Shown here: positions 1 to 8,321 of the stretch, in pieces
Layout of the letters: each line of letters begins with the position of its first letter
How positions within the stretch are numbered: position 1 is the stretch's first letter
Assembly (NCBI RefSeq): GCF_902785855.1
Contig: NZ_CADAAJ010000001.1
DNA length: 64,000 bases
Origin: an uncultured Methanobrevibacter sp.
Lineage (GTDB): Archaea; Methanobacteriota; Methanobacteria; Methanobacteriales; Methanobacteriaceae
Direction: 5' to 3' (one strand)
Notes under the pieces: generated by a model
The model's database searches: none
Told to the model about the DNA's origin: nothing
What the model saw: the letters and a program-made list of their open reading frames with translations, nothing else
Translations under genes and position numbers: made by a program

Positions 1-1541
1 AAGTAGTTTGCATAATTGATGATTTGGACAGGTTATCTAAGGATGAAATCGCTGAAATGTTTAAGCTAATCAAGATAATGGCTGATTTTAAGAATATGAT
101 TTATATAGTTTCATTTGATAAGGATGTTGTTGCGAAGGCTTTAGATGATGATTATGGTGGTGAAAAATATATTGAAAAGATTATCAATGTTCCATTATAT
201 GTTCCTTTAATTACAACAGATGAGCTTACAAATTTATTATTGGAGGAAGTTGATAGGTTACGTGACCAGTATGAACTCTCTGTTGATTATTCAAGATTAA
301 AACGCTTTTTGAATTTTTATCCTATGGCTCAGGATAAACAATTTGGTGTAATCCACTTCTTTAAAAATCTTCGAGATATAAAACGTTTTATCAATATTTT
401 AGAGTTTAACATAGAGCTAATTAAAGATGAGGTTAATTTTGCCGATTTTTTTGTTTTAACTGCGCTGCAGGTTTTTCATTTAGACATATACAATAAAATC
501 AAGTATAATGAATATTTATTAACTGATCATCATTACTATGATGGAGTTGCAATTTCTAAAGATGAAATTATCGAGTCTAAAAAAAGGGATTTTGAAAAAT
601 TTTGTGATGATGAAAACATTACTTTAATTTTGAAAAAACTATTCCCAATGATGAATTACATTTATGATTCTAATCATTATAATTTCCATTTTAAGAATTT
701 TGATGAACAATTGTTGATTTGCCATCTTAAGCATTTCAAATCCTATTTTAAATTGGACGATGTTGTAAAGGTTCTTCCAGAAAAAGAAGTTAATATCTTA
801 GTCGAGATGATTAATTCAAAAGAGTCTGTGGATGAAATATTTAATAATTTAAATGATTTGGGATTAAATAAAATAAGGCTATTCTTTGAGTACATGTTAA
901 ATAGACTTGAAAGAATAGTTAAAAAACGATATTTTATTAAAATTCTTTTTTTAGTTGAGGAAAGACTTGGAAGTGAAGTTTATAATTGCATGTACACTCC
1001 TCGAAATATTCAAGATTTAATCGTGAATTTACTTTATAAAATAGATAAAAATTGCAGATTTGAAATCTTAAAAGAGAATTTTGAATTATGTGATAATTTT
1101 GATTTGTTATGTTATCTTTGGAGATATATTAATGAAAATAATTATAATATCTATGTTGCAGATGAAGAAATATTGTCTAGCGATGAACTTGATTATTTAA
1201 GGCAGGTTTTGAAGGATAAATTAAATATTGCTGAGATTGTTCCTTGGGATAGTTCAAAATTCATTGAAATAATGACAATTTATGAAATACTTGATTTAAC
1301 AGAAATTAATGATACAATTATTAGTAATTCTCTTATAACTGCTGAGGATGTTTTATCCTTTTTGAATATTTTTAATCATGATGATAAAAAATCTAATTCG
1401 TCTCGAGTATATGTTGGGGAAATGAAGAAATATTGCAATATTGAAATTATTAAAAATAAAGTAGATGACTTGCCTCCAGAGTATAATGAAGAACAAGTTG
1501 TTAAAAGCTTTTTAAAGGGTTATGATTTGATTAATAATTAG
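1..1541 (+). CDS. KAP family P-loop NTPase, C-terminal portion (5' end lies outside the window)
   Basis: The frame is open from base 3 with no stop upstream of the track start. It reads VVCIIDDLDRLSKDEIAEMFKLIK...NMIYIVSFDKDVVAKAL...YIEKIINVPLYVP. This is the Walker-B hhhhDDLDR motif plus the downstream signature typical of KAP NTPases. Confidence 0.8.
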   Translation, partial: VVCIIDDLDRLSKDEIAEMFKLIKIMADFKNMIYIVSFDKDVVAKALDDDYGGEKYIEKIINVPLYVPLITTDELTNLLLEEVDRLRDQYELSVDYSRLKRFLNFYPMAQDKQFGVIHFFKNLRDIKRFINILEFNIELIKDEVNFADFFVLTALQVFHLDIYNKIKYNEYLLTDHHYYDGVAISKDEIIESKKRDFEKFCDDENITLILKKLFPMMNYIYDSNHYNFHFKNFDEQLLICHLKHFKSYFKLDDVVKVLPEKEVNILVEMINSKESVDEIFNNLNDLGLNKIRLFFEYMLNRLERIVKKRYFIKILFLVEERLGSEVYNCMYTPRNIQDLIVNLLYKIDKNCRFEILKENFELCDNFDLLCYLWRYINENNYNIYVADEEILSSDELDYLRQVLKDKLNIAEIVPWDSSKFIEIMTIYEILDLTEINDTIISNSLITAEDVLSFLNIFNHDDKKSNSSRVYVGEMKKYCNIEIIKNKVDDLPPEYNEEQVVKSFLKGYDLINN

Positions 1542-1544
1542 TGA

Positions 1545-2444
1545 GTGTTAAAAATGTTGGATATTGATTTTGATTATAGTTTTATTGAGAAACTAGCAGT
1601 TGTAATATGTGGTGATGAGTATAGCGATAAATTTTGTGAAGATATTTCTCCTACTAAATGTCCAGTATATAGAACTAAACCACAATTAGAAAAGTTTTTT
1701 GAAGATATTGTGGATTTTAAATCTGATGATGGGGAATCTAGAAAAATATTTACAATTCAGTGTTTGTCTAAAATAAATAATTTAAATAAAATGGATATTG
1801 TTTTAGAGAAATTAACAAATCCTAAAACATATCTCGATGAAAAAATTGTCAAATTCATTATTAATGAAGTTAATGGAATAATAAAATGGTATGATATTGA
1901 AATAAAGTTAGAAAAGAATCAACCAACTATTGTTGAATTAGATGAATCAGTTAATGTTGATATTTCAAATAAAGAAATGGGTGATTTTGTAATATTAGAT
2001 TTTAAAGAATTGATTGATGATGAAACTTTATCTGAAATAATGAATCTTCGATGGTTGGAGATAAAGCATACTTATTTATCCAAATCTTATTTATCAACTG
2101 TTGTGTTATTAGGCAGCATACTTGAAGGTTTGTTGTATTATTATGTTTCTACTAATTATAATACTATTAAATCAGTTTCATCAGCTCCCAAAGATTACTC
2201 AGGAAAAATTATTTCAATAGATAATTGGAAATTAAATGATTTGATAAATGTTGCTCATGAATGCAATTGGCTTGATGATGATATTAAAACATTTAATGAA
2301 GGTTTGAGAGATTATAGGAATTTAATTCATCCTAAAGTACAAAAAAATAAGCTAATAATTCCTGATAAAGATACATGTGATATTTGTATCGATGTTGTTG
2401 TTGCAGCGTTCAATGATTTGAAAAATAAAGAATACTTAAAGTAA
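1545..2444 (+). CDS. Hypothetical protein with a C-terminal HEPN-like helical domain
   Basis: It starts 4 nt after the KAP stop; ATG 1554, preceded by GTGAGTG, is probably the real start. The C-terminal third reads GSILEGLL...WKLNDLINVAHE...GLRDYRNLIHP, which gives an R-x6-H motif with RN in a helical context. The N-terminal stretch CPVYRTKPQLEKFF...SRKIF resembles N-terminal modules on Abi/HEPN proteins, from recollection only. Confidence 0.55.
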   Translation: MLKMLDIDFDYSFIEKLAVVICGDEYSDKFCEDISPTKCPVYRTKPQLEKFFEDIVDFKSDDGESRKIFTIQCLSKINNLNKMDIVLEKLTNPKTYLDEKIVKFIINEVNGIIKWYDIEIKLEKNQPTIVELDESVNVDISNKEMGDFVILDFKELIDDETLSEIMNLRWLEIKHTYLSKSYLSTVVLLGSILEGLLYYYVSTNYNTIKSVSSAPKDYSGKIISIDNWKLNDLINVAHECNWLDDDIKTFNEGLRDYRNLIHPKVQKNKLIIPDKDTCDICIDVVVAAFNDLKNKEYLK

Positions 2445-2502
2445 TTTTTTCTTTATTCATAAAACTAAATTTTTTTCACTGAGTAACAATATAGATTTTG
2501 TC

Positions 2503-2988
2503 ATGAAATTAATTAATGAAAGATGTAATGAATGTGATTCAAAAATAGATCCCTATGAATTTTTTATAAATAATGATGGGAGTAATTTTTTTTGCTCAGA
2601 AAAATGTTGTAAACAGTATTATAATAGAACTCATGAAGAATTGTTTATATATAAATCTATTTGTAGTGGATATGATGAATGTCATGAATTGAATAATATT
2701 TCAGAAAGGTGTAAAACTGAAAAGGAACTTCGAATGTCACAGTATGGTTTTCCACAAGGATTTAAGCAGAATAGGTGTCTTCCTTCTGAAATTTCGATTA
2801 TTCGCACTAATATGAAATTATATAATTTTGTAAAGCAATCTGAAGAGCAATCATCTAAATTGAATGAAAAAACAGTAAATCTCACGAAATTTAATGTTAA
2901 TTTAACAATAGCAATGTTGTTATTAGCAGCTATTAATGCAATAGGTATCATTGTTCAAATTTGGTTACAAATGTCTAGTGGAGGTTAA
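2503..2988 (+). CDS. FCS/TRASH-like zinc-ribbon protein with a C-terminal transmembrane helix
   Basis: It contains CNEC-x18-FCSEKC (a CxxC...FCSxxC pattern). A hydrophobic helix LTIAMLLLAAINAIGIIVQIWL sits at the C-terminus. Confidence 0.55.
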   Translation: MKLINERCNECDSKIDPYEFFINNDGSNFFCSEKCCKQYYNRTHEELFIYKSICSGYDECHELNNISERCKTEKELRMSQYGFPQGFKQNRCLPSEISIIRTNMKLYNFVKQSEEQSSKLNEKTVNLTKFNVNLTIAMLLLAAINAIGIIVQIWLQMSSGG

Positions 2989-2989
2989 T

Positions 2990-3721
2990 ATGATTAAAAA
3001 TTTAAAATTAAAATCACTTGAACTTGGTAAATTGATTGTCAAAAATGAAATTCATATTGATTGGTATAATATTTTAGATGCATTTGAATTTTTATATGTA
3101 TTTGATTCCCACCCTCGTTTAATTAGAAGTCAAAATTGGGGTGACCCGGATTATAACGATTGTGTAATCGGGGTTATTTTTGATTCTTTAAGTGATGATA
3201 AATTACGTGCTTGTGACATGATAGAATATATTTTAAAAAATTGCACTGGAATTGAAGAATTGGAAATAACTAAAATCATGTCTGATTTTCGAGGGGATGA
3301 ACCTTATTTAAATACAAATAGAACAACTGATGAAGAAATTAAAGATTTAATTGAACACATTAATCAATCTGTTTCTTCAGGAAAATTAGTATTTGCTCTT
3401 GATAGATTACATACATTAATGACTAAATATGTAAAGGAATTATGTGTAATTCATTCTATTCCCTTTGATGAAAATGAGAGATTAGATGTTATATTTAAAA
3501 GCTATGTTAATTATATTAAGGAGTACATTGACTCAGACATGTCTTTAACAATACTAAAATCAAATATATCTCTCTTCTCACAATTTAACAATATAAGGAA
3601 TAATTATACTTATGCTCATGATAATAATGTTTTAGATGATGCTGAAAGTAAATTAATTTTTAAAAATATTGTCAATGTTAAAGAATTTGTCGATGATTTA
3701 GAAGAATGTATATTTAATTAG
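2990..3721 (+). CDS. AbiJ-like protein with an Abi_C-type HEPN domain
   Basis: ATG 2990 lies 1 nt after the upstream stop and is preceded by GGAGG; the track start at 2951 is unlikely. Motifs FALDRLHTLMTKYVKELC ... FNNIRNNYTYAHD (RN-x5-H) match my recollection of the Abi_C HEPN signature. Confidence 0.6.
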   Translation: MIKNLKLKSLELGKLIVKNEIHIDWYNILDAFEFLYVFDSHPRLIRSQNWGDPDYNDCVIGVIFDSLSDDKLRACDMIEYILKNCTGIEELEITKIMSDFRGDEPYLNTNRTTDEEIKDLIEHINQSVSSGKLVFALDRLHTLMTKYVKELCVIHSIPFDENERLDVIFKSYVNYIKEYIDSDMSLTILKSNISLFSQFNNIRNNYTYAHDNNVLDDAESKLIFKNIVNVKEFVDDLEECIFN

Positions 3722-3763
3722 TTATCTAAAATTTTTTATTAATTAATGATAAAATATTAATTC

Positions 3764-5179
3764 ATGATTAGCGAATACAAATATCCAGATTTTCACTTCA
3801 ATACGATTGTAGATGAATTTAATACTGAAAAAATATTTTTCGAAGCAGATAATGCTAAACTCATTTTTAGTGATGAAGAAACTTACAATCTTTCAAATAT
3901 TAAATTATATATCTTAGATGATATTAAACTAGATTTTGAATTAAATGAAAGGATAAGTAGAGACTATGATAAGTTCAATATTGAGTTTGAATCATCAGGG
4001 GGTTGGTTGATTAATATTGAGGGATGTTATTTTACATTTTTTGAAAATATGTATCCTGTCTCTGCTGAAGGGCTTAATGTAAAACTCATTAAAGGGCAGT
4101 GCAGTAATGACACTCCTGTACGATATTATAAGTTCATTGAAAATTTAAATTTAAGTAATGAATGTGAAATTAATGAAGTTAAATGCACGGAACTGGATAA
4201 TTTATTTTTAATAAAGCACAAAAATGACTTTTTTAAAAATATTGACGGCTATTTCTACATTACGGATAGCTATAATAATATAAAAGATGTTTTTAGTAAT
4301 TTATATTTTCTTTTAAAATATTATTCTGCCGAATCTGCCAGCATGAGAATTTCTTACTGTTTGGGTGATGATTTTGAAAAAATTGAAATTGGACTTCCAT
4401 CCACATATTCAAATTTCAAGTATGAATCCTGTTTTTATGATACATATCGAAATACTCTTTTTGATTTTCTAAATTCATCTTATGATTCCTATGTTGGACT
4501 TAAAAATGAGGGCATAATTGATGTTAATTTATTAATTCACTATTTAGCCTTTTTAAAAAGGGAAAGATATATGGAAGTTGAATTATTAATTTCAGCAATC
4601 ATTCTTGAAGTCTTAACAAAAAACCATAAGAAAATTAAGGATTCAAATGAGGCTAAATTCGCTTCTGATTTAAGAAAATTAATTAAAAAATTAGATTTAG
4701 ATTTCGATAAGTTAGATGAATTTTTTAAAGGATATGGTGTAGTTTGTGATAGCAATACATTTTTAAGCGAAATTGTTAAAGTAAGAAATGATATAGTTCA
4801 TGGAAATGCTGTAGTTTCACTAAAACTTTGTTATTTAATGACAACTTTTGTAAATATCCTTGCCTTAAAATTATTTAATATTAAATGTGCAATGTATGTT
4901 CCATTAATCAAAAGGAATGGGTTTACACATGAATTTTTAGAACAATTCATCTTAAGTCGTGATGATGAAGAAGTTGAAGAGGATACTCGTGAAATAGATG
5001 ATCAACCTATTGAAGTAGAAGAGATTAATGGGAAATTATATTTGCCACTTGAATCATTTAATGGTGAAGAGGATGTTATTCATGAAGGTGATAAATTTAG
5101 GCTTTTAGAATTTGAAACAAAAGAGTATGGTGAAGATTGCAAACTCAATTTAAAAATGGCACGTTTTGTGAAACAATAA
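3764..5179 (+). CDS. ApeA-like protein: large N-terminal domain plus a C-terminal HEPN domain (RNxxxHG)
   Basis: The 471-aa protein has the canonical HEPN motif EIVKVRNDIVHGN, preceded by a helix LISAIILEVLTK. It ends in an acidic C-terminal tail. Confidence 0.55.
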   Translation: MISEYKYPDFHFNTIVDEFNTEKIFFEADNAKLIFSDEETYNLSNIKLYILDDIKLDFELNERISRDYDKFNIEFESSGGWLINIEGCYFTFFENMYPVSAEGLNVKLIKGQCSNDTPVRYYKFIENLNLSNECEINEVKCTELDNLFLIKHKNDFFKNIDGYFYITDSYNNIKDVFSNLYFLLKYYSAESASMRISYCLGDDFEKIEIGLPSTYSNFKYESCFYDTYRNTLFDFLNSSYDSYVGLKNEGIIDVNLLIHYLAFLKRERYMEVELLISAIILEVLTKNHKKIKDSNEAKFASDLRKLIKKLDLDFDKLDEFFKGYGVVCDSNTFLSEIVKVRNDIVHGNAVVSLKLCYLMTTFVNILALKLFNIKCAMYVPLIKRNGFTHEFLEQFILSRDDEEVEEDTREIDDQPIEVEEINGKLYLPLESFNGEEDVIHEGDKFRLLEFETKEYGEDCKLNLKMARFVKQ

Positions 5180-5411
5180 TGATGGAGTTCATTGATTTTT
5201 GATGGATTTTGTGATGGACTTTTTAATTAATAAATTGATTAATTATTTGAGGTTTTTATCATAAAACTGCCATCTATTTGATCATGTTTTTAATATAAAT
5301 GAGTGCTGAATTATTTTGATGGACTTGACATAGAGTTAGCTTGCTCTATATGTTATATATTATTATATAACTATTCCACTGCCCACTAAAACCTGAAATC
5401 CTTGAAAAATT

Positions 5412-5656
5412 TCAATAAGGTATGATGAATGGTATTCTCCAGATTATAAAAGACATGTACTTTTTATGACACCGCTTGCAGAGTGTTATGCCGTTATCCA
5501 GATTAAGTCGTAGGGGTATAAAATTCTTAAACGAAAACACTTGATGAGTCCTGCTGGATCTCCACAAAAAGCAGCATCCATTATCCCTCTTATTCTCTTT
5601 AGTATTTGTCTTCCTCCATCTTGTTTTGTAAACGTCAATCTGTTCTGTTGAAGTTC
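5412..5656 (-). pseudogene. HNH endonuclease remnant, frameshifted and truncated at the IS boundary
   Basis: This is my own minus-strand translation. One frame reads ...ILKRIRGIMDAAFCGDPAGLI. An adjacent frame reads ...THQVFSFKNFIPLRLNLDNGITLCKRCHKK then stops at 5412-5414. Together they give a C-x2-CG ... H ... N ... LCxxCH pattern. There is no start codon, and the region is noticeably more GC-rich than its flanks. Confidence 0.35.
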
Positions 5657-5657
5657 A

Positions 5658-5681
5658 GGGTGTCCGCCAAAATTGAATTTT
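5658..5681. repeat. Left terminal inverted repeat of the IS
   Basis: GGGTGTCCGCCAAAATTGAATTTT matches the reverse complement of 7419-7442 at 23 of 24 positions. Confidence 0.85.
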
Positions 5682-5994
5682 GATTTTTTGTCAAAAAATT
5701 TTTTAGCCTAATTTTTATTATTTTTACTATATTCTTTCAAATTTTTATTTATTTTAATTTTTATATTTTATTCATTTTTTAAATCATTATTGGATTTTAT
5801 ATTGTTTTTATTTTTTGTTTTAATTGAATTTTAGATAGTTAAGTTTATATACTTGGTTATATATAATTTATATTAGATATAATTTGATTTGGTGTTGTTT
5901 TTTATGGTTAAAGAAAGTTAAATAAGAATCAGACAAAATTTGGTATTAAGACACTTGATTGGAATGTTCCAGCTAACCATATTTCTCGTTTGTC

Positions 5995-7398
5995 GTGGAA
6001 TTTATTGAAGAAGTTTTTCCACTTTTAAATATCAAAGAACCCAAGAAAAAGAAAGGAAGAGACTCCTTTCCAGTAGATTCAATGTTAAAACTATTTATTT
6101 ATGCTAAAATACAACATATTGACCGAACATCCATTATTGCAGACATGGCACGATACCATGACATATTTAAATATGTTTGCGACGATATCGGGCCTTCTGA
6201 AAGATCAATTCAACGATATAGAAGAGAATACGGCCATTATTTCGAAGTATTATTGAAAATGACCTTAAAAAAGGCATTTGATGAAGGATTCACTGAATTT
6301 AATCATGTTGCTATTGATGGAACCATCAAAAAAGCATACAATTCCAACAACAACACCATAACAAAAAAAGAAACACAAATATTGGTCGATTACTACGAAA
6401 GACGACCAATAGACTCTGAATCACTTGAAAAACTTCATAAACCTGCTCAAAGATTGTTCGAAAAGAAAGACATGGGTGATGAAGATAAATTAGAACTATT
6501 GTATGGAATAGAAACACAATTTACATTCACAGGACAAGATAGAATACCAGTAAACGATATTGAAGCAAGATTTATGGAAGGTAAGAAAGGAAACTTCATG
6601 GTTGCCTATAATATCCAATCTGCAGTCGATTATGACACCAAATTAATCTGTGCAATAAACGTCACACAAAACCCTACAGACCATTATGAACTATCAAACA
6701 TCGCAGAAATAGCAATAAAAAACATTAACACCAAACCAAAATATATAAGTGCAGATACAATCTAATTAAACCAAATATCATTATACTACTTAGTAGATAA
6801 AAAAATAGATGGATTAATACCAAACAGAAAACAAAGCAAAGAAAAAATAGGAAAATTAAACCCAAATCCATATCATAAAGACCATTTTGAATATAATTAT
6901 GAATTAGATGCATTTAAACGCCCAGAAAATCAATATATGTACTTTTTTGCAAAATATGTTGAACCACATAAAGACCCAGAAAAACCAGATAAAATAAAAA
7001 GACTTTACAATAATTACGAAGCCTGTAAAAACTGCAAATCAAGAAATAAATGTTGTTCATCCTCATAAACACACAAAACCATCACAGAATACGGTTCAGA
7101 AATGCAAAAAGTAATGAACCAGAAAATGGAAAAACAAGAATATAAAGACGAATATGCCAAAAGATCAAGCGTTGAAGGACCATTTGGAATATTCAAAGAA
7201 CAATTCCAAATAGAAAAAGAAGTTGGCACCGGAATGATAAAAACAGAAGAAAGAATAAACTTAGACGCATTAGCATATAATTTAATACGATTATACAACA
7301 TTAAACAAGAAATAGAAAATACAACAGAAGATTTAGAAGATTTCTGCGAAAGTACATCCATTAAAAATCAATTAAAACTCGATGTGACAATATTTTAA
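5995..7398 (+). pseudogene. DDE transposase interrupted by in-frame stops
   Basis: The track ORFs 5995-6765 and 7102-7398 are in the same frame. They are joined by an open stretch that contains only two TAA codons (6763-6765 and 7066-7068). Motifs: DSMLKLFIYAKIQHI (DUF772-like), AIDGT, SADTI*, CKNCKSRNKCC, and SVEGPFGIFKEQF...LAYNLIRL. Upstream, 5966-5989 in another frame reads VPANHISR, so the 5' end is probably frameshifted as well. Confidence 0.8.
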
Positions 7399-7418
7399 AA
7401 AAAATCAACAAATTAGCA

Positions 7419-7442
7419 AAAATTTAATTTTGGCGGACACCC
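7419..7442. repeat. Right terminal inverted repeat of the IS
   Basis: AAAATTTAATTTTGGCGGACACCC is the reverse complement of the left repeat with one mismatch. Confidence 0.85.
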
Positions 7443-7511
7443 TTATAAAAAATCTCACCGAGAGCAAATGATAAGTAATATTTATCATAAGTATACAATA
7501 TTTTAATTGTT

Positions 7512-8321
7512 ATGTTTCCAATAGAATACTTTTTAGGATTAATTTTAATAGGAATTTGTGCCGGTTTTGTTTCTGGTCTTTTAGGTGTTGGTGGAGGATT
7601 TTTAATTGTTCCTTTACAGTATTTTTTACTTAAATATATAGGTGTTAATCCGGATTTAGCAATGTTAATATCTTTGGGTACCAGTTTAGCTATTATCATA
7701 CCAACTGCATTAAGTGGAGCTTACAGACATACTCGTAAAATGGATAATATCTTAAAACCTGGAATTAAATTTGGTATTTTTGGGATTATTGGTGGTGCTA
7801 TTGGAGGGGCTGTTGCATCAACACTACCTTCAAGAATACTTGAAATAATATTTGGTTGTTTACTTTTATTTATTGTTGTAAATAATATTATTAATATTAA
7901 TAAAGAAGATAATGAAGCTAAAATTCCATTTAATTTAATTTCTATTGGAATTATTGGTTTATTGGTTGGATTTTCATCTGGTCTTTTAGGTGTTGGTGGA
8001 GGTATATTTTTAATAGCTATTTTAACTACACTTTTAGGTTTTTCAATGATTGAATCAATTGGAACATCTTCTATTTTTATTTCGCTAACAGCTGTTGGGG
8101 GATTTTTATCATATATAGTTTCTGGTTGGGGTGTTTGCACATTCCCGTATTCAATTGGTTATGTTAGTATTATAAATTTTGCTTTAATTGCTTGTTTTTC
8201 TGTTCCATTAGCATCTGTTGGTGCTAAAGTTGCTCATAAAATGCCTCAAAAGAAATTAAAAATTATATTCTCAATAGTTGTGTTATATATGGCATTAAAA
8301 ATGTTAAATATACTGCCTTAA
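7512..8321 (+). CDS. TauE/SafE family sulfite/anion exporter (DUF81) membrane protein
   Basis: It has duplicated SGLLGVGGG(F/I) motifs and multiple transmembrane helices. Confidence 0.85.
   Translation: MFPIEYFLGLILIGICAGFVSGLLGVGGGFLIVPLQYFLLKYIGVNPDLAMLISLGTSLAIIIPTALSGAYRHTRKMDNILKPGIKFGIFGIIGGAIGGAVASTLPSRILEIIFGCLLLFIVVNNIININKEDNEAKIPFNLISIGIIGLLVGFSSGLLGVGGGIFLIAILTTLLGFSMIESIGTSSIFISLTAVGGFLSYIVSGWGVCTFPYSIGYVSIINFALIACFSVPLASVGAKVAHKMPQKKLKIIFSIVVLYMALKMLNILP

Follow-up and report, generated by a model that had tools for sequence, protein, structure and literature searches.

We analysed a 64,000-nt stretch of a contig from an uncultured Methanobrevibacter sp. (hereafter the window), a methanogen, as the first-pass annotation had supposed from the letters alone. 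The window opens with five genes, all intact and on the + strand, which are followed by degraded sequence and then by core genes. The close packing noted earlier is borne out, with spacers of 3 (or 12), 58, 1 and 42 nt. The features are as follows.

1..1541, + strand: C-terminal 512 codons of a predicted PifA-like KAP P-loop NTPase of 682 aa (Pfam KAP_NTPase, PADLOC PifA)
1545..2444, + strand: ORF2, 299 aa (GTG start at 1545) or 296 aa (ATG start at 1554) (143 homologues, AlphaFold2 model)
2503..2988, + strand: ORF3, 161 aa, small Cys-rich tail-anchored membrane protein (sequence, hydropathy)
2990..3721, + strand: ORF4, 243 aa, AbiJ-type by its domains, AbiJ_NTD5 and Abi_C HEPN (Pfam above cut-offs)
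3764..5179, + strand: ORF5, 471 aa, probably ApeA-like (HEPN_Apea below cut-off, conserved RNDIVH)
5412..5656, - strand: degraded HNH endonuclease gene (Pfam HNH, three-frame translation)
5658..7442, + strand: dead IS1182-family element (terminal inverted repeats GGGTGTCCGCCAAAATT, NCBIfam transpos_IS1182)
7508..7523, no strand: right copy of a 16-bp direct repeat, TGTTATGTTTCCAATA (comparison of empty and filled sites; 10,790 bp spacing)
7512..8321, + strand: tauE/safE-family membrane protein (Pfam TauE), the nearest core gene on the island's right side

The first-pass annotation had described this region as a variable island and proposed comparing strains to see whether it comes and goes as a unit. 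It does. In at least 19 related contigs (L184-L190 and 12 similar ones) the block is absent and tauE directly adjoins the left-flank core gene, a 352-aa gene, with tauE 40 nt from the 352-aa/EamA genes; one of these contigs (L186) has flanks 99.95% and 99.3% identical to those of the filled site. The 16-bp repeat is present once at the empty site and twice, as perfect copies 10,790 bp apart, at the filled site, the left copy lying outside the window (L001:2124-2139) and the right copy including the tauE start codon at 7512. As in a genomic island, the locus thus has defined boundaries, and close strains either carry the whole of it or lack it. The five-gene block is real, but the limits first given to it are not: the island, 10,790 bp in size, begins some 5.3 kb before the window and ends at position 7507 rather than 7442. 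The genes from 7512 onward are indeed core genes. None of the island genes encodes an integrase, and no tRNA gene was found within 20 kb. Upstream of the window the island also carries a TIGR04255-family gene (1.2e-30), a membrane protein gene and a putative ParE/RelE-like toxin gene, a weak match below Pfam thresholds that is preceded by a small ORF, possibly its antitoxin.

The right end of the island has decayed, as was first described. The HNH remnant is split over two frames and remains open as far as the left end of the IS; its ORF at 5412-5567 matches Pfam HNH at 3.7e-4 (21.0 bits, cut-off 21.4). The IS has 25-nt terminal inverted repeats that are 96% complementary, and its fragments match NCBIfam transpos_IS1182 at 4.4e-32 and 7.5e-9, placing it by sequence in the IS1182 family. 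Its transposase gene is not intact: the single transposase frame (5995-7398) is interrupted by two TAA codons in frame, at 6763-6765 and 7064-7066, and there are four stops in its leader.

The first gene is cut by the window edge. Its start lies 507 nt upstream, and the full 682-aa gene was taken from an identical contig (L001:4799-6847). On the full gene Pfam KAP_NTPase (PF07693) matches at 2.7e-49 (168.5 bits, cut-off 20), against 1.7e-24 on the fragment, and both Walker A (GEWGSGKTS) and Walker B (VVCIIDDLDR) are present, upholding the original call of a KAP P-loop NTPase. The PADLOC model of PifA (PDLC02361) aligns at 9.9e-60, with residues 3-661 on model positions 6-700 of 720. Judged by these matches, gene 1 encodes a KAP NTPase that resembles PifA over its full length.

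PifA of the F plasmid is a KAP-family P-loop NTPase that excludes phage T7 as a single gene; the exclusion is abortive, is set off by phage proteins and is accompanied by membrane permeabilisation. The window protein shares with PifA the full-length profile match, the KAP domain with Walker A and B, a long C-terminal region (its own PifA-like region of about 380 aa) and a defence-island context. It differs in being archaeal, in having no detectable transmembrane segment (no 19-residue stretch reaches a Kyte-Doolittle value of 1.6 across the 682 aa) and in being tightly linked, in the Methanobrevibacter lineage, to a HEPN-like gene that follows it. Transmembrane helices within the NTPase domain are typical of many members of the KAP family, though not of all.

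Three of the remaining proteins had been read as HEPN RNases from R-x4-6-H motifs. ORF4 is the clearest of them, with Pfam AbiJ_NTD5 at 8.2e-10 (39 bits, cut-off 26.7) and Abi_C at 2.1e-7 (31.4 bits, cut-off 24). Its motif RNNYTYAH spans R203-H210; R203 is invariant across 8 related sequences, of which the closer ones retain the pattern RNN..(Y/T)..H. AbiJ, an abortive-infection protein of Lactococcus, is a HEPN protein with variable N-terminal domains, and Abi proteins that join such an N-domain to HEPN are sensor/toxin pairs (Anantharaman et al. 2013, PMC3710099). ORF4 has the same two domains above Pfam thresholds and the Rx6H motif, and RefSeq names it 'abortive infection family protein'; it differs in that no PADLOC model, AbiJ included, matches it at E <= 1. 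On its domain content ORF4 is a genuine AbiJ.

ORF2 begins with a helical N-domain that has no annotation (about residues 1-130) and continues with a helical C-terminal domain (about 150-296) bearing the motif LRDYRNLIHP, in which RDYRNLIH spans R252-H259 (Rx6H). Its 143 homologues come from archaea and many bacterial phyla, and R252, R255, N256 and H259 are invariant in 54 homologues. Foldseek on the AlphaFold2 model (mean pLDDT 84) matched the C-domain, over domain-sized regions, mainly to HEPN crystal structures (1ufb, 2hsb, 1wol, 3o10, 2q00, 1o3u); measured on the target, the TM-scores were 0.50-0.68. This structural comparison, which the first-pass annotation had suggested, favours a HEPN fold by the structures retrieved but not by their E-values, all of which exceed 0.6 since the query comprises two domains. 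Pfam gives no match to the window protein; DUF4145 appears below threshold in 20 of 54 family members (best E 7.9e-4). Taken together, the C-domain is probably a DUF4145-like HEPN domain that falls below curated thresholds. In layout ORF2 resembles AbiJ, with a variable N-domain ahead of a HEPN-like one at the C-terminus, and its two domains turn up in other proteins in new combinations with AbiTii and Abi_C domains; unlike AbiJ, ORF2 matches neither Abi_C nor the AbiJ N-domains, its C-domain being nearest to DUF4145.

ORF5 is rich in beta structure towards its N-terminus, carries RNDIVH (R341-H346) in a helical domain and ends in an acidic tail. Across 31 distant homologues R341 is invariant and N342, H346 and E282 nearly so, and HEPN models match 7 of these relatives (HEPN_Apea 5, HEPN_RiboL-PSP 2). 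HEPN_Apea is also the best Pfam match of ORF5 itself, at 6.7e-4 and 20.5 bits, under its cut-off of 24.4, and hhalign against true ApeA aligned the RNxxxH region weakly (E 0.015). The AlphaFold2 model is poor (mean pLDDT 62), the predicted beta strands at about residues 13-126 being the best-modelled part of the N-region. RefSeq names the protein 'HEPN domain-containing protein'. ApeA is a single-protein HEPN anticodon nuclease (tRNase) activated by deoxydinucleotides (bioRxiv 10.64898/2026.01.26.701840). ORF5 shares with it the large beta-rich N-region and, after this, a helical domain in which RNxxxH is conserved, and is likewise a lone gene in defence islands; it differs in scoring below the Pfam cut-off, in matching neither Pfam ApeA_NTD1 nor any PADLOC model (ApeA included), and in belonging to a very small family, with 25 close homologues, all in Methanobrevibacter, and 49 clusters among 1.84 billion representatives. 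We conclude that ORF5 is probably an ApeA-like protein, with a beta-rich N-domain and a HEPN domain, below formal thresholds.

The R-x4-6-H motifs on which the HEPN reading was first based are therefore present and conserved, as with R252/H259 in 54 ORF2 homologues and R341 in 31 ORF5 homologues; the reading itself holds above Pfam thresholds for ORF4, and as probable but below formal thresholds for ORF2 and ORF5. A PADLOC search, also proposed at the outset, names gene 1 and returns nothing for ORF2 to ORF5. ORF3 is of another kind, with a Cys-rich N-terminus (CxxC...FCSxxC) that resembles the TRASH/FCS zinc-binding motif, one C-terminal transmembrane helix (residues 130-158) and family matches that are weak throughout (for example L24e, 0.0037).

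The decayed end of the island and the possible ParE/RelE-like toxin gene, whose Pfam matches are below threshold, could also mean that these genes have no antiviral role: a mobile element in decay may carry them as selfish addiction or toxin cargo, or they may be turning into pseudogenes. We regard this as improbable: all five ORFs are intact, the predicted catalytic motif residues are invariant across homologues at 64-96% identity, and homologues of the island genes sit among restriction-modification, McrBC, TIR and OLD-like genes.

The first-pass annotation knew of no named system with stacked HEPN effectors behind a KAP NTPase, and left open whether the five genes form one NTPase-controlled RNase system or two or three independent abortive-infection modules. 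The parts match named single-gene kinds (PifA at 9.9e-60, AbiJ and ApeA-like), which speaks against an unnamed single system. A multi-component system in which the NTPase controls three HEPN effectors would fit the co-directional genes and short spacers, as well as the recurrence of a four-gene block, KAP-ORF2-ORF3-AbiJ, in L193-L195; a similar block is apparent in a M. thaueri genome, judged by near-consecutive accession numbers of ORF3, ORF4 and ORF5. These recurring blocks, however, come from closely related strains, and shared ancestry explains them. Elsewhere the genes do not co-vary as a unit, and in relatives at 60-88% identity each of them occurs apart from the rest. L193 has KAP-ORF2-ORF3-AbiJ without ORF5, L087 has KAP-ORF2-ORF3 alone and L180 has KAP-ORF2 alone; L089 and L092 have ORF2 and an Abi_C protein without KAP or ORF3, within other defence islands (McrBC, type I R-M, TIR). 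In L095-L098 ORF5 (88% identical) stands alone and an ORF3 homologue lies elsewhere in the locus; in L095 that homologue is located downstream, by about 320 nt, of an unrelated protein of 635 aa (in Pfam a weak OLD-like TOPRIM match), with neither KAP nor ORF2 near it. AbiJ, ApeA and PifA are moreover each known to work as single genes. We consider the five-gene system largely refuted by these contexts and very improbable; of the two alternatives, independent modules is the better one, since the genes occur apart.

Among the five genes the sole remaining candidate pair is KAP and ORF2, the only tight recurrent pair, found in four flanking contexts (the window, L193, L087 and L180), all in Methanobrevibacter. 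Adjacency is kept while KAP identity falls to 63% and ORF2 identity to 70%, and the junction is a 3-12 nt spacer or an 11-nt overlap, which is at least as compatible with a functional pair as with adjacency by descent. In such a system, which could take in ORF3, whose homologues come after KAP-ORF2 in L087 and L193, the PifA-like NTPase would sense infection and, in an NTP-dependent manner, switch on or scaffold the ORF2 HEPN RNase, with ORF4 and ORF5 separate. Oligo-T runs after ORF2 would fit a transcript end there, although T-runs are common in DNA of 25% G+C. KAP domains require a linked effector region, and KAP NTPases with C-terminal regions of unknown kind defend on their own (PMC13552941); the window KAP already has its own C-terminal region.

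The wider distribution of the two genes argues against such a system. At 72-77% identity there are ORF2 homologues that come without KAP and whose upstream DNA is unrelated, and in the ORF2 tree one KAP-less member nests among KAP-linked ones. Conversely, ORF2 does not accompany the closer relatives of KAP (55% and 42% identity). With profile HMMs, KAP was found in 0 of 80 distant ORF2 loci, and genes of the ORF2, ORF4 or ORF5 families in 0 of 80 distant KAP loci; the ORF2 loci were the best 80 of 163 among 185,579 species representatives, these 80 containing no Methanobrevibacter and having 41% identity at the closest match. Distant relatives of ORF2 were found in type I R-M operons. The co-occurrence of KAP with ORF2 homologues across archaea and bacteria that had been suggested for examination failed to appear in these two sets of 80 distant loci, the four contexts with the pairing all being in Methanobrevibacter. 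A two- or three-gene system of this kind seems to us unlikely, though less so than the readings set aside above.

Our preferred reading, to which we give a probability of about 0.7 as a whole, is that a rumen Methanobrevibacter related to M. thaueri has a strain-specific defence island inserted at tauE's 5' end between copies of the 16-bp repeat, and that positions 1-7507 of the window make up the right-hand two thirds of that island. The island would not be one new multi-part system but an ordinary mix-and-match defence island, in which several suicide-type antiviral genes, separate and mostly of known kinds, are stacked. Its self-contained single-protein immunity or toxin modules would comprise the PifA-like KAP, ORF2, ORF4 (AbiJ) and the ApeA-like ORF5, together with ORF3 and the genes upstream of the window. 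As inferred from their families, ORF2, ORF4 and ORF5, each a variable N-terminal domain with a C-terminal HEPN-type RNase domain, may be inactive until the N-domain detects a component of the virus or a ligand that arises from infection, upon which the HEPN domain would cleave RNA (tRNA in the case of ApeA) and halt growth of the infected cell. KAP would act separately as an NTP-dependent sensor and effector, as PifA does. KAP and ORF2 form a lineage-specific pair that is probably transcribed together, mutual dependence being no part of this proposal. The modules would have been assembled by mix-and-match within Methanobrevibacter defence islands, the island end decaying afterwards to leave the HNH remnant and the dead IS.

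Set against prokaryotic defence islands in general, the locus shows the same presence/absence polymorphism, the same clustering of Abi, toxin-antitoxin and NTPase genes with IS debris, and modules reshuffled between islands in which R-M, McrBC, TIR and OLD-like genes also occur. Nothing essential differs. The site is unusual, with the first tauE codons duplicated as the 16-bp repeat at an island that carries no integrase.

The five genes at the left end of the window lie on one strand with short spacers between consecutive frames, as the first-pass annotation had described; in order, these measure 3 (or 12), 58, 1 and 42 nt. All three of the R-x4-6-H motifs that it quoted were recovered in the translated ORFs, and the decayed genes that it placed downstream were borne out by profile matches, translations and inverted repeats.

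Features of the gene block and its downstream side (the first five are ORF calls)
1-1541, plus strand: KAP fragment (PifA-like KAP P-loop NTPase)
1545 (GTG) or 1554 (ATG) to 2444, plus strand: ORF2 (N-domain and probable HEPN domain)
2503-2988, plus strand: ORF3 (small membrane protein)
2990-3721, plus strand: ORF4 (AbiJ-type)
3764-5179, plus strand: ORF5 (ApeA-like, probable HEPN)
5412-5656, minus strand: HNH remnant (Pfam HNH, 21.0 bits vs a cut-off of 21.4)
5658-7442: IS1182-family element with 25-nt inverted repeats

Gene callers take the ATG at 1554 as the start of ORF2, and an exact look-up from the GTG start gave no match. Oligo-T runs 3' of ORF2 (within 2445-2480) and 3' of ORF4 (within 3722-3763) hint at three transcription units, a weak signal in DNA of 25% G+C. 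An Rfam scan of the window found no RNA family.

Exact-protein look-ups returned two identical contigs, L001 (70 kb) and L002 (GCA_964296105.1), both reaching upstream of the window. With the conserved protein YbjQ, encoded 2 kb to the right, as a second query, we retrieved contigs from other samples in which tauE stands 40 nt from the genes for a 352-aa membrane protein and EamA, the island's left flank in L001. Such empty sites comprise at least seven loci (L184-L190) and 12 similar ones. The flanks of L186, an empty site from a neighbouring sample accession, are 99.95% and 99.3% identical to those of L001. Alignment of the junctions places TGTTATGTTTCCAATA once at the empty site and twice, as a perfect 16-bp direct repeat, at the filled site, with the copies spaced 10,790 bp apart.

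Copies of the direct repeat at the filled site (junction alignment)
L001:2124-2139: left copy of TGTTATGTTTCCAATA
L001:12914-12929, equal to window 7508-7523: right copy of TGTTATGTTTCCAATA

The repeat takes in the start codon of tauE and its first three codons, and the repeat positions at the filled and empty sites therefore put the end of the island at window position 7507, 65 bp past the IS. The proposed accessory island is thus confirmed by an empty site in near-identical strains and by exact repeat boundaries, and strain comparison shows it present or absent between near-isogenic strains, which were found in consecutively accessioned metagenome assemblies. Neither an integrase nor a tRNA gene was found in the island. 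RefSeq places the proteins in an uncultured Methanobrevibacter sp.; an M. thaueri genome encodes near-identical ORF3, ORF4 and ORF5 proteins with near-consecutive accession numbers.

Outside the window, on its upstream side, the island's left portion (L001:2517-4786) holds four genes ahead of the full KAP gene, all on the window's plus strand.

Genes of the island upstream of the window
Upstream, plus strand: TIGR04255-family gene (1.2e-30)
Upstream, plus strand: gene for a 79-aa protein
Upstream, plus strand: gene for a 95-aa putative ParE/RelE-like toxin (weak, below Pfam cut-offs)
Upstream, plus strand: gene for a 290-aa protein with two transmembrane segments
Upstream start, plus strand: full KAP gene, 682 aa (in L001)

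At the right end, the HNH remnant is split over two frames and its open frame reaches the IS boundary in translation. The 65-bp interval that separates the IS from the island limit on the right (7443-7507) includes a short minus-strand frame starting with ATG. This frame may once have been the 5' end of the HNH gene, cut off by the IS, but the frames join uncleanly. The transposase occupies a single frame (5995-7398) with in-frame TAA codons at 6763-6765 and 7064-7066, and its leader contains more stops. The left end of the IS carries a 100-bp tandem duplication in L001 (10949-11148) and L002, corresponding to window 5654-5757; the duplicated segment, consisting of the inverted repeat and about 83 nt, is seen in two independent assemblies and is single copy in the window.

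The first-pass annotation had left open whether the genes form one unnamed, NTPase-controlled multi-component system or independent modules. We compared their contexts in relatives.

Contexts of the island's genes in related Methanobrevibacter loci (percent identity)
L193-L195 (KAP 85%, ORF2 83%): KAP-ORF2-ORF3-AbiJ, then RhuM on the opposite strand; without ORF5
L087-L088 (KAP 78%, ORF2 75%): KAP-ORF2-ORF3 only
L180 (KAP 63%, ORF2 70%): KAP-ORF2 only, then Mrr
L089-L091 (no KAP, ORF2 72%): without ORF3; ORF2, then an Abi_C protein about 60% identical to ORF4
L092-L094 (no KAP, ORF2 77%): SEFIR-TIR gene, ORF2, a diverged Abi_C protein, type I R-M
L095-L098 (no KAP, no ORF2): ORF5 alone (88% identical); ORF3 homologue in the locus
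L179 (KAP 55%, no ORF2): two tandem KAP genes
L181-L183, M. smithii (KAP 42%, no ORF2): solo KAP

These contexts show that the five genes do not co-vary, arguing against the single system and favouring independent modules. The neighbourhood of L089-L091 holds another AbiJ, a true ApeA, MutH, Dcm and McrBC. Only KAP and ORF2 form a tight recurring pair, with spacers of 3-12 nt or an 11-nt overlap, and they do so in this genus only. Profile HMMs found no KAP gene within 8 kb of ORF2 at 80 distant ORF2 loci, and at 80 distant KAP loci they detected no member of the ORF2, Abi_C and ORF5 families within 5 kb of KAP. In the ORF2 tree the KAP-less gene of L092 is nested in a clade of KAP-linked genes, although for its immediate sister (P0009) we only infer the KAP linkage, from contigs of matching length; a search upstream of KAP-less ORF2 genes found no KAP remnant.

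Overall, this rumen methanogen carries a defence island of the usual mix-and-match type, whose limits are sharply defined and for which the empty sites serve as a natural control. The tight pairing raises the alternative that KAP and ORF2 make up a two-gene system specific to one Methanobrevibacter lineage, in which the NTPase would govern the activity of a distinct HEPN RNase and ORF3 may take part. We consider this unlikely. If true, no earlier pairing of KAP with HEPN would precede it, and it would be archaeal; a search of the literature turned up no account of a KAP-HEPN operon.

KAP itself matches Pfam KAP_NTPase (2.7e-49) and PADLOC PifA (9.9e-60, nearly the whole model covered), has intact Walker A and Walker B motifs, and showed no transmembrane segment. 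PifA is the classical example of a KAP NTPase defending alone. KAP NTPases with uncharacterised C-terminal regions likewise act as stand-alone defences that require the Walker B motif (PMC13552941). In L179 (3764-8049), the KAP relative immediately follows a different KAP NTPase (741 aa), and the tandem genes have an integrase, an AAA_15/AAA_21 ATPase and type I R-M as neighbours.

ORF2 matched no curated family in Pfam, PADLOC, NCBIfam or PHROGs. Its family consists of 280-300-aa proteins from archaea and many bacterial phyla, with R252, R255, N256 and H259 invariant in the C-terminal half. Foldseek with the AlphaFold2 model (mean pLDDT 84) gave domain-sized matches mainly to HEPN crystal structures (target TM-score 0.63-0.68, with non-significant E-values for this two-domain query). 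The HEPN-clan family DUF4145 matched 20 of 54 family members below threshold, no other family recurring as often. A HEPN fold in the C-domain is thus probable. Comparison of the model with viral structures by Foldseek gave nothing informative, searches of PDB sequences with profiles of ORF2, ORF5 and KAP returned no relatives, and hhalign detected no similarity between the C-domains of the ORF2 family and those of ORF4 or the ORF5 family.

The C-terminal half of ORF2 is elsewhere joined to an AbiTii N-domain. Conversely, two natural hybrids of 268 aa (P0024 and P0025) combine an ORF2-type N-domain (about 60% identical) with an ORF4-type Abi_C HEPN domain, which suggests that the N-domain can pair with a different HEPN domain. 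The halves of ORF2 thereby show the same domain shuffling that is known for Abi HEPN proteins (PMC3710099). The hybrid form is the expected outcome of a deletion between adjacent ORF2 and ORF4 genes. An apparent match of the ORF2 N-domain to AbiJ_NTD5 (probability 96.8) was an artefact of these hybrids in the alignment, and the clean test was negative.

A search of 185,579 species-representative genomes confirmed 163 ORF2 relatives. The best 80 of these loci included no Methanobrevibacter, and their closest match was 41% identical, so that ORF2 has a sporadic distribution in the genus. The closest relative outside it (Methanobacterium) and several distant ones lie between type I R-M genes. Distant family members adjoin hsdM and hsdS of type I R-M in L007, L009, L010, L011, L013, L036 and L081, and in Micromonosporaceae-like actinobacteria the gene follows, on the same strand, one for a large conserved protein (578-1585 aa).

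ORF4 is an AbiJ-type HEPN protein, with AbiJ_NTD5 and Abi_C both over Pfam cut-offs. ORF5, which RefSeq names a HEPN domain-containing protein, has only 25 close homologues, each of them apparently a Methanobrevibacter protein, and 49 clusters in 1.84 billion representatives. R341 is invariant, N342 and H346 nearly so, and HEPN_Apea or HEPN_RiboL-PSP matched 7 of 31 relatives below threshold. AlphaFold2 (mean pLDDT 62) predicts a beta-rich N-terminal region like that of ApeA, but no match to ApeA_NTD1 was obtained. No PADLOC model matched ORF5, Foldseek with its model found no informative match, and NCBIfam and PHROGs yielded nothing of use for ORF2-ORF5.

On the model of AbiJ-class proteins (PMC3710099) and ApeA (bioRxiv 10.64898/2026.01.26.701840), the proteins that combine an N-domain with a HEPN domain probably stay inactive, each until its own N-domain encounters a component of a virus or a ligand arising from infection; the activated protein would then cut RNA and arrest the cell. 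The ORF2 family, found widely among both archaea and bacteria, and the rare ORF5 family have no curated domain assignment; they are unannotated members of a known design rather than a new kind of system, and enlarge the known set of proteins that join a variable N-domain to HEPN. No new principle emerges; architecture, inter-island shuffling and likely mechanisms are those described for bacterial defence islands. Experimental knowledge of antiviral defence in methanogens is scant, and the island offers a cleanly bounded, naturally polymorphic locus with four intact candidate immunity genes.

ORF3 (161 aa) carries a TRASH/FCS-like cysteine motif (CxxC...FCSxxC) and a C-terminal transmembrane helix, and might be an accessory membrane factor. 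This tail-anchored protein recurs in three different defence-island contexts; in L095 (7988-8473) its homologue lies about 320 nt downstream of the gene for a 635-aa protein with a weak OLD-like TOPRIM match.
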